From Candidatus Thorarchaeota archaeon (GTDB taxonomy: Archaea; Asgardarchaeota; Thorarchaeia; Thorarchaeales; Thorarchaeaceae): DNA of 64,000 bases. Position numbers and translations under genes: made by a program. The notes beneath the pieces were generated by a model. It was not told the origin of the DNA and did not search any database. It saw nothing but the letters and a program-made list of their open reading frames with translations. The stretch spans positions 31,704 to 95,703 of the forward strand of contig JBHLRS010000012.1 of the NCBI GenBank assembly GCA_048882325.1, in the 5' to 3' direction. How positions within the stretch are numbered: position 1 is the stretch's first letter; each line of letters starts with the position of its first letter. Positions 55,827 through 61,470 of the stretch are shown in pieces.

Positions 55827-55933
55827 GATATTTCGCCAACCAGATACAGATATAGAACTTTGCTGGTCAAAGTGTAGGTTCACCAGTAGGTATCTTTTTC
55901 TCTGAAACAGTCTCGGTTAGAATAGTGATCCCC

Positions 55934-57310
55934 ATGACGGACAGGCTCTTTGGGACGACAGGTGTGAGAAAGGTCTATGGTGATGAGTTTGATCTTGAGA
56001 TGGCGATGAACCTTGGAAAGTCGCTTGGTACCTACTTGGGTGAGGGAAATGTAATAGTAGCTCGTGATGCTCGGACAACCGGTCTAATGGTGGCTGATGC
56101 CTTGACTGCTGGTATCATGTCAACAGGAGTTAATGTAGTCCGTGCAGGAATCATTCCGACACCTACACTTGCATTCATCACAATGAAGATTGGTTATGAC
56201 GCAGGTCTAATGGTCACGGCATCTCACAATCCTCCAGAATATACAGGTGTGAAGTTCTGGTCTAAAACCAGTATGGGATTCACGGGAGCAGAAGAAGCTA
56301 AACTAGAGAGGATATATGACTCAAAGGACTTCAAAGTCGCAAATTGGGATGAGCTGGGAGAAGAAACTCGGATAGAAAATACTGTTGAGGAGCATATCAA
56401 GGCACTCCTTGAGATGTGTGATGTTGATGCCATTCAATCGAAGAAGTTCAGAGTGATTGTCGACCCTGGAAATGGGGCTGCATGCGTTCACGCACCATAC
56501 TTGATGCAACGTCTGGGTTGTCAGGTCGTAACCATAAACGGACAACTGGACGGACACTTCCCAGGAAGACGTTCTGAGCCTGATGAAGAGTCCCTCGGAG
56601 ACCTCATACAGATGATAAAGGAAACTGGCGCAGATCTAGGGATTGCTCATGATGGAGACGCTGATAGAGTAGTCTTTGTAACAGAAAGAGGTGAGGTGAT
56701 TAGAGGAGATCGGACCATCGCTCTTCTAGCACAACAATCACTTGGAAAATCCAAAAATAAGACAGTAGTGACAACGGTCGACAGTTCGCTTGTTCTTGAT
56801 GAAACAGTCAAATCAGCTGGTGGAAACACAGTACGAACTCCTGTTGGAGACATTCAGGTCGCAATCAAAGTTGCTGAAGAAAAAGGGGTCATCGGCGGGG
56901 AAGCCTGTGGAGTGTTCATTTTCCCAGATGCTCATCTTGCGCCCGAACCTTTTCTTGCAGCCTGCAAGGTCCTTGAGCTGATGGCTTTGTCTGGTAAGTC
57001 ATTCGGAGAGTTGATTGCAGCAATACCTCAGTACCCACTGCTAAGGACTAAGGTTCCGTGTCCGAATGACAAGAAACAAGGTGTGATGGACTCGCTTGAG
57101 AAGACACTCCCTGTTAAGATGAGCGACGTAAAGGAGGTCTTGACTGTGGATGGTCTCGGAATCACAATGAAGAAAGGCTGGGTATTGGTCAGACCTTCAG
57201 GCACTGAACCCGTCATAAGGATAACATGTGAAGGACAGACAGAAAACGCTGTGAAGGAAATTCTGAAGACAGCAGAGGATGTAGTTAAAGCAACAATAGC
57301 CTCAGCTTGA
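55934..57310 (+). CDS. glmM: Phosphoglucosamine mutase / phosphohexomutase
   Basis: LFGT.GVR, TASHNP, DGDADR, GGE..G, RPSGTEP. Confidence 0.88.
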   Translation: MTDRLFGTTGVRKVYGDEFDLEMAMNLGKSLGTYLGEGNVIVARDARTTGLMVADALTAGIMSTGVNVVRAGIIPTPTLAFITMKIGYDAGLMVTASHNPPEYTGVKFWSKTSMGFTGAEEAKLERIYDSKDFKVANWDELGEETRIENTVEEHIKALLEMCDVDAIQSKKFRVIVDPGNGAACVHAPYLMQRLGCQVVTINGQLDGHFPGRRSEPDEESLGDLIQMIKETGADLGIAHDGDADRVVFVTERGEVIRGDRTIALLAQQSLGKSKNKTVVTTVDSSLVLDETVKSAGGNTVRTPVGDIQVAIKVAEEKGVIGGEACGVFIFPDAHLAPEPFLAACKVLELMALSGKSFGELIAAIPQYPLLRTKVPCPNDKKQGVMDSLEKTLPVKMSDVKEVLTVDGLGITMKKGWVLVRPSGTEPVIRITCEGQTENAVKEILKTAEDVVKATIASA

Positions 57311-57330
57311 CTCTATGCCCTCGTCACGAT

Positions 57331-57347
57331 GCAAACAAGCTTAATAA
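57331..57347 (+). promoter_or_regulatory. BRE/TATA-like promoter of the 132-aa coiled-coil gene
   Basis: gcaaacaagcTTAATAA about 40 bp upstream of ATG 57388. Confidence 0.5.
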
Positions 57348-57387
57348 CGGAACCACTACCTTTCAACCTGATTAAGGGGTCAATACG

Positions 57388-57786
57388 ATGCCGGATGAAA
57401 GAGAAGAACTTGAAGCTGAGATTCTCGGTGAATTTGAATGGGCTCTAAAAGACCCCAATGAGGAGAAGATTCGTCAGCTTGGTGAGGTGGTCAGCATTAT
57501 CACAACCAAGTTGACCGAGGCAATCACGAATCTTCAGATCTCGGTTATGGATATAGAAAGCAAGCTTGATGAAATAGAGGGAAGAATCACTTCACTAGCA
57601 AGTCGAGCACCAGCTGCTTCAGCAGGACCATCAGCAGCAGCCGCAGGAGGAGAACCAATACCCACTATGGCAAGAGCACCCACTCCAAAACCAAGACCTG
57701 CAGGAGCTCCAGGTGGCGGTATGAGCATGATGGGCGAGCTGAAACAACTCCTTGCGGCCCGACGTAGAAAGTCAGAAGGTACATAG
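57388..57786 (+). CDS. Coiled-coil / Ala-Pro linker / C-terminal amphipathic-basic helix protein; candidate actin-binding regulator
   Basis: Heptad pattern over aa 28-70, low-complexity aa 74-108, C-terminal GGGMSMMGELKQLLAARRRK. Confidence 0.7.
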   Translation: MPDEREELEAEILGEFEWALKDPNEEKIRQLGEVVSIITTKLTEAITNLQISVMDIESKLDEIEGRITSLASRAPAASAGPSAAAAGGEPIPTMARAPTPKPRPAGAPGGGMSMMGELKQLLAARRRKSEGT

Positions 57787-57798
57787 TAGTCCGAATCA

Positions 57799-58467
57799 CT
57801 AGATTAAACGGGCTACACTGTTCATCTCATAGAATGGACCTGCATGTTCTGGAAGTGTGATTGAGAAGGCCTCAGCCCTCTTGCACTTCGCCTGTACCCC
57901 CCGCAGTCGTGTTCTAGCATCATAAAGCTGGAGGTAGAATGAGTCAGCCTTCTTGACCTGTGACTTGTGCTTCTTCAGAGCCGCTAGTGCAGCTGCATAT
58001 GATCCTGTGATGTCAACATGGACATTAGGTCGTGCAATCATGGTGTTGATTTCCATATTGTAAATTCGTTCTACTCTGTGAGCGTTGTCGAATATCGTTT
58101 TATGAGATGCCCACTCCGCAGCCTGATTTACAATCAATGCACATTGTTGGTGATTCCTATTGTAGTCAGCTGAGTGATGAGTTATGATGATAGCCGGGCG
58201 AGACTTCAGAATTGCTCCGACAACCTCGTTCGTGAGCTCTTCCCCAACAGCAAAGTCATCGCGTTCACTAAGATACAGATTCCTCGCACCGAGTATCCCG
58301 CAGGCGGCTTTAAGCTCTTCATTTCGTTCTTCATTTCCGGTCATGCAATGGATATCAACATTGATACCTTGGTCCACATGTGTCCTGATGGTTCCGCCTG
58401 CACCTATTGTTTCATCATCTGGGTGTGCTACCACAACGAGGATTGTTCCCACAACTGAACCGCTCAT
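57799..58467 (-). CDS. bshB: PIG-L/LmbE family deacetylase, probable BshB
   Basis: AHPDDE.IG.GGT, R..E...A...LG, VDIT, H.SQ, AEAF; divergent from bshA-bshC. Confidence 0.78.
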   Translation of the reverse strand: MSGSVVGTILVVVAHPDDETIGAGGTIRTHVDQGINVDIHCMTGNEERNEELKAACGILGARNLYLSERDDFAVGEELTNEVVGAILKSRPAIIITHHSADYNRNHQQCALIVNQAAEWASHKTIFDNAHRVERIYNMEINTMIARPNVHVDITGSYAAALAALKKHKSQVKKADSFYLQLYDARTRLRGVQAKCKRAEAFSITLPEHAGPFYEMNSVARLI

Positions 58468-58574
58468 GGGGTCAAGTTCCTAAAACTATCTAATCAAGGT
58501 TTGGCAACCTGTTTGTTGTACAAACCATTTCCCTTAAAGGGACAGCCAGCTCTGGTTGAAAGAAGGTGTACTGT

Positions 58575-59738
58575 TTGAGGATTGGAGTCAACCTGTATCC
58601 ATCAGTTGGTGGCAGCGGCTATCTTGCAACACGATTGGGGCAAGAGCTGGCTCAACACGGTCACATCATCCACTTCATCACATACCAGAGACCATTCTCG
58701 TTGATGTGGGAGCAAACCAGAGGTGTTCACGTGGATCTTGTGGACAGGTTCGACTACCCTCTGTTCAAGTCAATAGGTCCACCTTACACTATGGCTCTGG
58801 CATCCAAGATCATTAAGATTGCGAAGGACTCTAGGCTGGATCTAATACATTCTCATTATGCAATCCCACATGCGATGGCTGCATATATGGCGAGAGAAAT
58901 TTCAGGCATACCATATGTTGTGACTCTTCATGGTTCTGATGTCCATACTCTTGGTCAGGACCCAGCGTATCTACCAATTGTGAAACATACAGTTGAAAAG
59001 GCAGATGCAGTCACCGCAGTTTCAGAGTTTCTCAAAAAGAAAGCCCATGAGGAGCTTGGAATTGAGAGAGAGATACATGTCATTCCAAACTTCATTGATA
59101 CCTCCAAATTCTCTCATCTTAATGGTGTGAGGCTTTATGTTGAGAGCGGCTGTGTTGGCCTCCGAAGGAAGGAAGAAGCCATCGAGATAAATCCTGAGGA
59201 GAAGATTCTCCTTCATGCGTCCAACTTTCGAAAGGTGAAGCGTGTTGTAGAGCTTGTCGAGATAATGCGGATTGTTGTTGACCATTTTCCAAAGGCAAGA
59301 CTGATCATTGCAGGAGATGGACCAACGCGCATTGAGGTTGAACGGAAGATTGAATCTTTGGACTTATGCGACAATGTACATCTACTTGGTGTGAAGAGCA
59401 ATATGCAAGAAATCATGTGCTCTGCAGATATGTTCCTCCTGAATTCGACCCTTGAGGGAATGCCTCTTGTTCTTCTTGAGGCAATGTCTTGTAGTCTTCC
59501 GGTAATAACAACCCCAGCAGGGGGCATCCCTGAGCTTGTTCGTCCAGGAAAGGATGGAATGGTTACGAAAGGTTTCGAGCAAGAGGAGTTTGCACAGCTC
59601 ATCATTGAAATGCTAGAGAATGATGAGAAAAGAAAGAAGATTGGACAGGCTGGTAGAAAACGTGTCGAAGGCTCCTTCTCCTCAAAGCAAATTGTAAAGA
59701 TGTACGAGAAAGTATTCGAGGATGTATTATCTGAGTAG
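58575..59738 (+). CDS. bshA: N-acetyl-alpha-D-glucosaminyl L-malate synthase (GT4)
   Basis: YPSVGGSG..AT.LG..LA..GH, PPY..ALASK, HSHYAIPHA, TLHGSD, H.SNFRKVKRV, LEAM are BshA signature motifs; probable TTG start after gaaggtg. Confidence 0.92.
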   Translation: MRIGVNLYPSVGGSGYLATRLGQELAQHGHIIHFITYQRPFSLMWEQTRGVHVDLVDRFDYPLFKSIGPPYTMALASKIIKIAKDSRLDLIHSHYAIPHAMAAYMAREISGIPYVVTLHGSDVHTLGQDPAYLPIVKHTVEKADAVTAVSEFLKKKAHEELGIEREIHVIPNFIDTSKFSHLNGVRLYVESGCVGLRRKEEAIEINPEEKILLHASNFRKVKRVVELVEIMRIVVDHFPKARLIIAGDGPTRIEVERKIESLDLCDNVHLLGVKSNMQEIMCSADMFLLNSTLEGMPLVLLEAMSCSLPVITTPAGGIPELVRPGKDGMVTKGFEQEEFAQLIIEMLENDEKRKKIGQAGRKRVEGSFSSKQIVKMYEKVFEDVLSE

Positions 59739-59754
59739 GAGGTCAAGAACATAG

Positions 59755-61470
59755 TTGAATCCCAGTGTCTATAAAATCTATGAAGATTTCATCTGGAACG
59801 GTCAGAAGGCTGACTTTGCAGAGAAACTCTACGACTTGCCACCACTGACACTTGACGGACTTGCTGATAGAGCTCCTGGACTGTTGGATTCCTACAGGCA
59901 GATGCTCTGGCACATCCCAGAAAAAATGGACCTTCTAAAGAGTGCCCTCATTGAAAACAACAGAAACCTTGGTTCTCTCACACCCAAGGTGAGAGATAAT
60001 ATTGAAAACCTAGAGTATGGAGCGGTGGAGTCAGCTCATCAAACAGTCGTAATGGGCGGTCCTGCATTTATTCTGAACAAGGCAGCAACAGCTGTGAAGG
60101 TTGCCTCACTAGCTAATGAGAAAGGTACACAACTCGCACCTTTCTTCTGTGTCGCAGACTATGATATTGTTCAGACCGAATTGACACACATACGTACTCC
60201 AATTGTTGGTCAAGATGGTAACCTAATCAGTTTCCCAGTTCCAGAGGGATTTGATAACTCACCTGTACGCGTCATTCCATTGCCAGAGAATGATTGGTTG
60301 GCTCAAGTTGAAGAGGCCATCCAGAGCAGCTATCGACCGATGTTCAAGAGTCTGGAGCGAAATGCACGCTCATTGTTCGAGGAAAGACTAGACCGGTCTC
60401 TCACAATAGTACGAAATGCATTCTTCAACTCAAAGACATTAGGCGAATGGTCTCAACGTATCATGGGACATCTGTTTAATGTGGTTGGTGATCTAGGTAT
60501 ACCTCTTCTGACTGCCTCTGAGAAACCTATTCGGGATCTTCTAGTAGAAGGAATGGAGTTTCTACTTACTCGGGAGAACAGAGACCGATTCCTGAAAACC
60601 CATGATGAGATGACCAGTCTTATCGAGGTTCAAGGATATAGTCCTGGCATTGGTCGAAGAGGTCCTGATTATGTTCCTTTCTTCTACGAATGTCCGAAAC
60701 CAGAATGCAACAGCAGTCGAACTGAGCTCCATTATGAGGACTTGGGTTCCACCGCGGCTCTGACTGGCAAGTGTCCTTCATGCTCTGAACATATTGAGAT
60801 TGAAACTCCAGCTGACAGCCCCTATCTTGGAGATATTGCACATCAGATGTCACCGCGAGTTGACTCAAGACAGGTTCTCATAGATACGCTTGTCCCCACA
60901 GTAGCACACATCGGTGGTCCAGGTGAAACTGCATACTATGCGCAGGTCATACCATCAGTTAAAGCGATGAATATCCCATTTCCGTTGTTCATCAAATATC
61001 CGCGAGTCTATTTCAATACACCCTGGAATGAGCAACTTGCTAAGAGTCTAGAGGGTGAAGGATTTGAGGTTCTTCATAGAAAGGACATGTTCAGTCTGAT
61101 GGGGAAGATTGCAAAATCCAGAAAAAAGGACCAATTTGATAAGATGCATGACCATCTCGTTGAACTGAAAAACCTGATTCTAAATACACACACTTCAATG
61201 AATGAGATTTTGGAGGAAACAACCCAAAAAAGTAAGGAGTCTTCTGGAAAGGAAACAGAGAAACTTCAGCTCCTGAAATTGGATTTGGAGAGATATCTCT
61301 CATGGGTTTTTGGTCAGTATGCTGAGAGCAAACTAGGGCAGGAGTCGTCCTGGGCATGGATAGAGTGGGCAATAAATTCAGGATTCTCAGACCTGTTCGG
61401 AGCCTATGATAGAGCATATGTGGGTCCCATGAAGAACGGTGCCACTGTTTTTGTGAACTTTTCGGTCTGA
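59755..61470 (+). CDS. bshC: BshC-like cysteine-adding enzyme (divergent)
   Basis: HQ....GGP....K, P.F..A, SP.V..R......P..A.IGGPGE.AY.AQ, PR, long coiled coil; lies directly after bshA. Confidence 0.85.
   Translation: MNPSVYKIYEDFIWNGQKADFAEKLYDLPPLTLDGLADRAPGLLDSYRQMLWHIPEKMDLLKSALIENNRNLGSLTPKVRDNIENLEYGAVESAHQTVVMGGPAFILNKAATAVKVASLANEKGTQLAPFFCVADYDIVQTELTHIRTPIVGQDGNLISFPVPEGFDNSPVRVIPLPENDWLAQVEEAIQSSYRPMFKSLERNARSLFEERLDRSLTIVRNAFFNSKTLGEWSQRIMGHLFNVVGDLGIPLLTASEKPIRDLLVEGMEFLLTRENRDRFLKTHDEMTSLIEVQGYSPGIGRRGPDYVPFFYECPKPECNSSRTELHYEDLGSTAALTGKCPSCSEHIEIETPADSPYLGDIAHQMSPRVDSRQVLIDTLVPTVAHIGGPGETAYYAQVIPSVKAMNIPFPLFIKYPRVYFNTPWNEQLAKSLEGEGFEVLHRKDMFSLMGKIAKSRKKDQFDKMHDHLVELKNLILNTHTSMNEILEETTQKSKESSGKETEKLQLLKLDLERYLSWVFGQYAESKLGQESSWAWIEWAINSGFSDLFGAYDRAYVGPMKNGATVFVNFSV

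Follow-up and report, generated by a model that had tools for sequence, protein, structure and literature searches.

A minimal design suffices for the elongation and bundling of actin filaments, as the precedent of Burkholderia BimA illustrates, and the tetramerisation coiled coil of VASP is right-handed (Pfam VASP_tetra). BimA and other bacterial oligomeric actin polymerases with WH2 and proline-rich segments are reportedly mimics of Ena/VASP, an account attributed to Benanti et al. 2015. For the Asgard archaea, the actin regulators known from the literature are profilins and gelsolins only, and no Asgard nucleator, elongation factor or poly-Pro ligand of profilin is identified there. The phylum has eukaryote-like actin, profilins and gelsolins. 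Cultured Asgard species show actin-dependent movement and protrusions (PMC13716822). Here, we analysed a window of 64,000 nucleotides from a Candidatus Thorarchaeota archaeon (assembly GCA_048882325.1, contig JBHLRS010000012.1, positions 31,704 to 95,703), and focused on a gene of 132 amino acids (aa) on its forward strand, at 57388-57786. We found that this gene is the Thorarchaeota (Thor) member of a real, novel and undescribed protein family that is so far restricted to Asgard archaea. On the best-supported reading, its product is presumed to oligomerise through a coiled coil and to present a specific docking helix in several tethered copies, with actin as a plausible, tentative partner of that helix.

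The open reading frame (ORF) begins with ATG and encodes the 132-aa protein P0001, just as the earlier note on this DNA had described it. We found 314 homologs (E<=0.01), long blocks that are invariant among the Thor sequences in the alignment, and a dN/dS of 0.04-0.14 against orthologs from the same GTDB family, a comparison in which dS is saturated. Because these three observations agree, the gene is real, and its dN/dS of about 0.04-0.14 indicates strong purifying selection. We searched 1.84 billion representative proteins exhaustively with HMMER and obtained 15 clusters; in the distant ones, both terminal helices and the coiled coil are retained, with the linker altered or almost gone. The family profile scores 185 bits on the Thor gene, and P0001 aligns over its full length with members labelled Thor, Loki, Hel, Odin and Jord/Frey. 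It carries every feature by which we define the family, namely E-(E/D)-F in the N-terminal helix, some 50 aa of coiled coil, a linker that varies and, at the C-terminus, x-E-L-K-x-L-(F/L)-x-(K/R)-R. Pfam and NCBIfam searches with the whole protein (E<=10) gave coiled-coil noise only, and the ESM Atlas returned only the family's own unnamed clusters, with no named match for the tail.

Presence outside the phylum was judged through protein databases. The source names attached to the members are Thor, Loki, Hel, Odinarchaeum LCB_4, Frey/Jordarchaeia and 'Hodarchaeota'. The sole match with a non-Asgard name is a 'Bathyarchaeota' partial sequence, which shares 77% identity with the Thor protein and was probably binned wrongly. 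Within the phylum, the family profile matches 338 of 400 genomes, part of this signal being due to the coiled coil. A tail profile of 26 positions, more specific than the whole-family profile, detected the motif in 282 of the 400, mostly as one copy per genome. By GTDB family, it was found in 79/85 genomes of the Thor genome's own family (f1), in 4/4 Odin genomes and in nearly all genomes of f15-f23. Two closed Loki-type genomes (4.36 and 6.04 Mb), which we take to be those of MK-D1 and Lokiarchaeum ossiferum, contain exactly one strong copy each (about 50 bits), and the Thor genome contains one copy at 39 bits, its runner-up ORF reaching 9 bits. The presence of actin was examined in 61 genomes. 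Each motif-bearing GTDB family that was sampled has at least one member with actin, and the motif-bearing genomes that lack a full actin match are incomplete assemblies, some with actin fragments at contig ends. Within the phylum, no relatives turned up in tiny archaea without actin: in the 0.9-Mb genome G285, an actin-like gene is present and the tail motif was not found.

AlphaFold2, given an alignment of 33 sequences as input, predicted four elements in the 132-aa protein: a helix at residues 2-21, a helix at 25-73, disorder at 74-111 and a helix at 112-130 (Table 1). This layout of helix, disorder and helix supports the three modules proposed in the earlier note, a coiled coil, an Ala/Pro-rich linker and a terminal helix. 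The motif of the N-terminal helix reads E-F-E-W-A-L in Thor and E-E-F in the other lineages, with F16 nearly invariant, and the acidic Trp segment EELEAEILGEFEW pointed out before is present in the translation. In the long helix, positions 28, 31, 35, 38, 42, 46, 49, 53, 56, 60, 63, 67 and 70 are I, L or V throughout, exactly the heptad positions that had been listed. A PDB search with the whole-family profile returned coiled coils only, mostly trimeric and left-handed, autotransporter stalks included. Within the linker, P90, P92, T93, M94, A97, P98 and P100 of the motif EPIPTMARAPTPKP are invariant in 20 Thor sequences. The terminal segment GGGMSMMGELKQLLAARRRKSEGT, also noticed earlier, was located at 57712-57783, and the stop codon follows at 57784-57786. 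Upstream of the gene, a GGGG run resembling a Shine-Dalgarno sequence can be read after the TATA-like element AAGCTTAATAAC.

The C-terminal helix is the signature of the family. Its consensus is P-(V/M)-S-x-R-x-x-(I/L)-(M/Q)-x-E-L-K-x-L-(F/L)-x-(K/R)-R-(K/R), and across 33 diverse members L118 never changes and E117, K119 and L121 hardly ever do. The helix persists in genomes labelled Thor, Loki, Hel, Odin and Jord/Frey, and the linker varies freely in length and composition, which is the pattern across Asgard lineages that the earlier note had proposed to look for. In Loki-type relatives, true poly-Pro with PPPPPG-type repeats stands immediately before the tail helix, and runs of five or six Pro occur in Loki-type and Odin relatives. 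In the copy from the presumed L. ossiferum genome, the C-terminus is an acidic run of six Asp.

We also found that the tail helix is reused in other architectures. Fusions of 405-454 aa consist of an N-terminal region, an Arf/Gtr1_RagA-like domain of the Arf-like GTPase type, a coiled coil, a Pro-rich arm and the tail helix; one further fusion carries HEAT-type repeats instead (Table 1). The minimal version of the tail-helix protein has 98 aa. A Loki-type genome encodes a protein with three copies of the tail motif, separated by a Cys-rich region and low-complexity linkers. Such a tandem layout is known from the tandem-WH2 nucleators Spire, Cobl and VopL/VopF. These real fusions came from genome searches; in a set of 5.8 billion proteins, the only longer fused relative matched was P0204 (472 aa). 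On its short JGI contig (2127 nt), this call fuses phosphoglucosamine-mutase domains with a copy that is 79% identical to the Thor protein, and is probably an artefact, the sequence having lost a stop codon or suffered a frameshift.

We then compared the tail with the actin-binding motifs of human VASP, in which the WH2-like GAB motif occupies residues 223-239, the F-actin-binding (FAB) motif 259-278 and the tetramerising coiled coil 343-380 (PMC10340426). The FAB motif as given in the earlier note is correct according to this source. Against the pan-family tail profile, VASP FAB scores 6.4 bits in a gapless alignment over positions 7-23, a score that was equalled by 6/2000 and 24/5000 shuffles. 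The Thor-only tail profile gives 11.6 bits, which 3/5000 shuffles reach. In this alignment, the hydrophobic spacing and the basic cluster of FAB match the tail helix. The resemblance appears to be order-specific and better than that to WH2 or to the MIM1 motif of ESCRT-III, and the shuffles bear out the FAB-like layout that had been noticed earlier. At 6-12 bits, however, such a likeness is far too weak to prove homology with Ena/VASP.

Because the family has an Ena/VASP-like design, FAB-like spacing in its tail and poly-Pro arms in its relatives, because it includes a tandem-motif protein and is restricted to an actin-bearing phylum, and because no other Asgard elongation factor or poly-Pro ligand is known, we consider actin to be a plausible partner of the tail helix, while holding this view tentatively. 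We propose that the 132-aa protein would be a small cytoplasmic scaffold, whose N-terminal helices would form a parallel homo-oligomeric coiled coil, giving each particle several flexible Pro-rich arms. Every arm would end in the conserved amphipathic, basic docking helix, for which actin is the most likely partner. Such a particle could act in the manner of Ena/VASP's EVH2 half, or of the BimA trimer from Burkholderia, and several weak actin-binding helices together might tether or bundle filaments. The poly-Pro arms of the Loki-type relatives may also deliver profilin-actin to growing filament ends, and the action would probably take place near membranes. A more far-reaching version, which we regard as possible but doubtful, is that the family is the missing Asgard actin-assembly factor, whose FAB/WH2-like helices would bind actin and whose poly-Pro arms would recruit profilin-actin, under the control of Arf-like GTPases or coupled to BAR-like proteins in some lineages.

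We also compared the family with described systems. With the EVH2 region of Ena/VASP, the family shares a coiled coil that is presumed to oligomerise, a flexible Pro-rich region and a short amphipathic helix with a terminal Arg/Lys cluster. Unlike Ena/VASP, it has no EVH1, no GAB or WH2 and no VASP_tetra match, and its coiled coil is N-terminal whereas that of VASP is C-terminal; an EVH1 (WH1) domain was not found in the Thor protein, all 132 aa of which are taken up by the helices and the linker. The Ena/VASP-like design proposed in the earlier note is partly upheld, being clearer in the Loki-type relatives, through their poly-Pro, than in the Thor protein, and not borne out in the GAB comparison or by VASP_tetra. 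BimA resembles the proposed particle in being a coiled-coil oligomer with Pro-rich arms and short helices, which bind actin in BimA, but it is a surface autotransporter with canonical WH2; no WH2 was matched in the Thor protein, which is cytoplasmic. In its N-terminal half, the tail resembles WH2/beta-thymosin (PF02205) through its M-x-E-(I/L), its hydrophobic residues at i, i+3 and i+6 and the basic cluster that follows, and the three tail copies in one Loki-type protein recall the tandem-WH2 nucleators. In contrast to WH2, the tail has no LKKT/V and no helix-breaking Gly, and its basic cluster comes directly after the helix.

Several observations weigh against actin as the partner. The Thor linker is Ala/Pro-rich and has no poly-Pro run, and the Thor protein has no second actin-type motif (GAB, KLRK). 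A similarity of 6.4 bits is invisible in a database search, and the FAB motif was picked post hoc; VASP GAB scores only 1.3 bits against the pan-family tail profile. Pfam WH2, WH1, VASP_tetra and WAHD gave no match in 33 members or in 10 isolated 50-aa tails (E<=10), and a PDB search with the tail profile returned designed coils only, with no WH2 or VASP chain. The module order is opposite to that of VASP. Furthermore, the tail profile did not find the motif in f8 (0/31), f13 (0/12), f6 (0/4) and f27 (0/5), and these motif-less families still have actin, which shares 53-72% identity with that of Thor. The Loki and Odin profilins are reported, as cited in PMC8410842, not to bind VASP poly-Pro peptides.

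Further data that bear on actin are the proteome of L. ossiferum and the Lokiactin co-immunoprecipitation (co-IP) data in Supplementary Table 2 of bioRxiv 10.1101/2025.11.30.690169. Locus tags were placed on the genome with two 2DGel genes as position markers and then by a mass match of the Elf1-like gene, whose 24.01-kDa mass ties this upstream neighbour to GNAMCCOK_02218. Since the family gene is adjacent to GNAMCCOK_02218, we identified it as GNAMCCOK_02219, the presumptive L. ossiferum ortholog (L028:4995-5450). GNAMCCOK_02219 is abundant: it was detected in all proteome samples with a mean log2 of 18.47, above the profilin Pro2 (17.38), which counts in favour of the actin reading. It is not among the Lokiactin co-IP rows listed (log2 ratio down to -1.06; the table has 841 further rows), and profilin and gelsolins, all less abundant, are enriched there. 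This result is weak evidence against a stable association of GNAMCCOK_02219 with actin. Low-affinity contacts of the FAB or WH2 type are easily lost in such pull-downs.

These points leave room for the same tethered-helix scaffold with another partner, and it is possible, if unlikely when taken by itself, that the helix docks onto a non-actin membrane-remodelling protein and that the scaffold is an adaptor clustering that partner; we regard this as nearly as likely as actin. Candidates would be the BAR-like neighbour described below, an Arf-family GTPase effector, or a helical bundle such as the MIT domain of Vps4. The near-invariant E-L-K core indicates a specific protein contact, the tail has no significant match to actin-binding families, and the presumptive ortholog is not among the Lokiactin co-IP rows listed. 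The BAR-like linkage and the Arf-like fusions tie the module to membrane remodelling and not directly to actin, and VTT/DedA neighbours in three lineages and a Vps36-GLUE-like neighbour in one point in the same direction. The BAR-like gene, of 207 aa, adjoins the family gene in seven loci of three other GTDB families, in three arrangements (same strand upstream, same strand downstream and convergent). Its model has three long helices (pLDDT 91.8), and its structural matches are almost all BAR proteins, arfaptin at TM 0.57-0.64 and the I-BAR domains of IRSp53 and MIM at TM 0.42-0.52, with weak E-values of 0.017-0.1. IRSp53 and MIM couple a BAR-type domain to VASP or WAVE binding, or to WH2. The adjacency of a BAR-like gene and a gene with a Pro-rich arm and a candidate actin motif resembles these adaptors, and in this respect also speaks for the actin reading, but here the two parts are separate genes, the BAR fold has weak E-values, and neither the Thor genome nor Odinarchaeum, both of which have the family, yielded the BAR-like gene. 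No specific candidate stands out as a non-actin partner. MIM1, with the consensus (D/E)xxLxxRLxxL(K/R), is a docking site at the C-terminus of Snf7-fold proteins. ESCRT-III proteins of the Vps2/24/46 class, in Asgard archaea too, present it at the C-terminus as an amphipathic helix rich in Leu, held on a flexible tether that is partly Pro-rich (PMC7240154), much as the tail helix is placed in our family, which is a point for this reading. However, the MIM1 consensus requires Arg where the family has an almost invariant Glu, the two ESCRT-III tails of the Thor genome score -1.1 and -1.2 bits against the pan-family tail profile compared with +6.4 for VASP FAB, and Pfam found no Snf7 domain in the 132-aa protein.

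It is rather improbable that the tail is a membrane-targeting amphipathic helix of the MinD/FtsA type, which would anchor the coiled-coil and Pro-arm protein to the inner face of the membrane. Membrane-targeting sequences typically combine a hydrophobic face at i, i+1, i+4, i+7 and i+8 with a Lys/Arg cluster that comes after it, at the very C-terminus, and the tail has both; the Arf-like GTPase and BAR-like associations are membrane-related as well. Such helices tolerate drift, yet E117, L118 and K119 are almost invariant across the phylum, and the three-motif protein carries internal and N-terminal copies of the motif. We give very little credence to a true evolutionary kinship with, or a precursor role for, WASH, WAVE, WASP-family nucleation-promoting factors or Ena/VASP. 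The earlier note had suggested a relation to WASH, WAVE, BRK1 and CCDC53, and this was not upheld. WAHD/WHD, WH2, WH1 and VASP_tetra gave no match, and CCDC53 appeared only as coiled-coil noise in 4/33 members (E>=0.017, the best being 0.017), a weak hint that, together with the FAB-like layout and the gapless alignments of the earlier note, is what speaks for kinship. Coiled-coil similarity carries little information, and the profile fits many unrelated coiled coils better. L-K-K-T/V is absent from the family alignment, a C-terminal acidic Trp is absent, the tail ending basic or, in one Loki-type genome, in the Asp run, and the module order is unlike that of all these families. The earlier note had itself remarked that the Thor protein lacks LKKT, long poly-Pro and a C-terminal acidic Trp, in agreement with our alignment and translation; its proposal of a precursor of WASP-family/VASP architecture is not demonstrable. 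Taken together, we favour a scaffold of tethered docking helices with actin as its tentative partner.

We further examined the gene neighbourhood. In Thor, the order glmM, 132-aa gene and PIG-L deacetylase gene is conserved in the 20 examined loci of f1. The 5' neighbour at 55925-57310 encodes the archaeal phosphoglucosamine mutase GlmM (TIGR03990, 531 bits, above the cut-off), and on the other side lies a divergent bacillithiol-type cluster. The locus at 55925-61470 around the gene comprises GlmM, a BshB1-like PIG-L deacetylase (83 bits, below the cut-off), BshA (384 bits, above) and a BshC-like protein (74 bits, below), a bacillithiol-type set that is unusual for an archaeon. A functional tie of the 132-aa protein to the flanking glmM and bacillithiol-type genes was rejected, since the synteny is seen only in the 20 f1 loci.

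Other neighbours occur outside f1. The Elf1-like neighbour combines an N-terminal zinc ribbon (Pfam PF05129) with a long helical tail that is acidic, and is conserved in two GTDB families. In L. ossiferum, the Elf1-like GNAMCCOK_02218 is enriched in the Lokiactin co-IP (log2 1.36, adjusted p 0.034), which the paper does not discuss. A gene for a VTT/DedA membrane protein adjoins the family gene in three GTDB families, Odinarchaeum LCB_4 included, and the Vps36 GLUE-like gene lies beside tandem paralogs of the family gene in two loci (L023 and L037). Two proteins of the L. ossiferum co-IP were considered as links to the family and set aside: 'Arf' is not a family fusion, as the closed genome has only one strong motif copy, and 'Bar1' is not the family neighbour, as some 390 kb separate the BAR-like homolog from the family gene and its position is not that of Bar1.

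Table 1. Positions of the Thor gene, its parts, and fused, tandem or neighbouring genes; entries beginning with L are loci of relatives.
Feature	Position	Strand	Details
Complete CDS	57388..57786	+	132 aa plus stop; 314 homologs; dN/dS 0.04-0.14
TATA-like element AAGCTTAATAAC, AT-rich, putative archaeal promoter	about 57339..57350	+	read from sequence, ~40 nt 5' of ATG
N-terminal helix, aa 2-21	57391..57450	+	AlphaFold2; conserved acidic-aromatic motif
Long heptad helix, aa 25-73	57460..57606	+	AlphaFold2 pLDDT above 90; presumed homo-oligomerising coiled coil
Ala/Pro/Gly linker, disordered, aa 74-111	57607..57720	+	AlphaFold2 pLDDT about 52, without secondary structure
Thor-conserved linear motif in linker, EPIPTMARAPTPKP, aa 89-102	57652..57693	+	Thor alignment
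C-terminal amphipathic basic helix, aa 112-130, MSMMGELKQLLAARRRKSE	57721..57777	+	AlphaFold2 pLDDT 74-88; family signature, VASP-FAB-like element
Arf-like GTPase fusion	L038:526-1872	+	Pfam Arf and Gtr1_RagA
Arf-like GTPase fusion	L043:1489-2820	-	Pfam Arf and Gtr1_RagA
Arf-like GTPase fusion	L045:1-1362	-	Pfam Arf and Gtr1_RagA
Arf-like GTPase fusion	L098:358-1575	+	read from sequence only
HEAT fusion, 406 aa	L099:1489-2709	-	N-terminal HEAT-type repeats, then coiled coil, Pro arm, tail helix
Three-motif protein, 306 aa, Loki-type genome	L096:1312-2232	-	tail motif N-terminal, internal and C-terminal
BAR-like gene, 207 aa	L031:5566-6186	-	orthologs in L026, L032-L035, L046; without Pfam match
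Elf1-like neighbour, 196-206 aa	L028:4232-4852	+	also adjoins family gene in L027, L029, L031-L035
VTT/DedA neighbour	L039, L040, L042 (e.g. L042:338-1075)	+ (L042)	
Vps36 GLUE-like neighbour, 217 aa	L023:1261-1914, also L037	+ (L023)	weak GLUE-like N-terminus and zinc ribbon

In this study, we describe a small, abundant family, so far Asgard-only, with the minimal design of an Ena/VASP-type polymerase, which makes it a concrete and cheap-to-test candidate for the gap among Asgard actin regulators. Were the family indeed the missing actin-assembly factor, archaea would have their own counterpart to the logic by which Ena/VASP, WASP or formins elongate filaments close to membranes, as an analogue or possibly as its ancestor. 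This counterpart could help to drive the actin-dependent protrusions of cultured Asgard archaea. If the tail helix binds actin, multivalent and membrane-coupled filament assembly would predate eukaryotes; if it binds another partner, the family would represent a new and widely reused docking module of Asgard cell biology.

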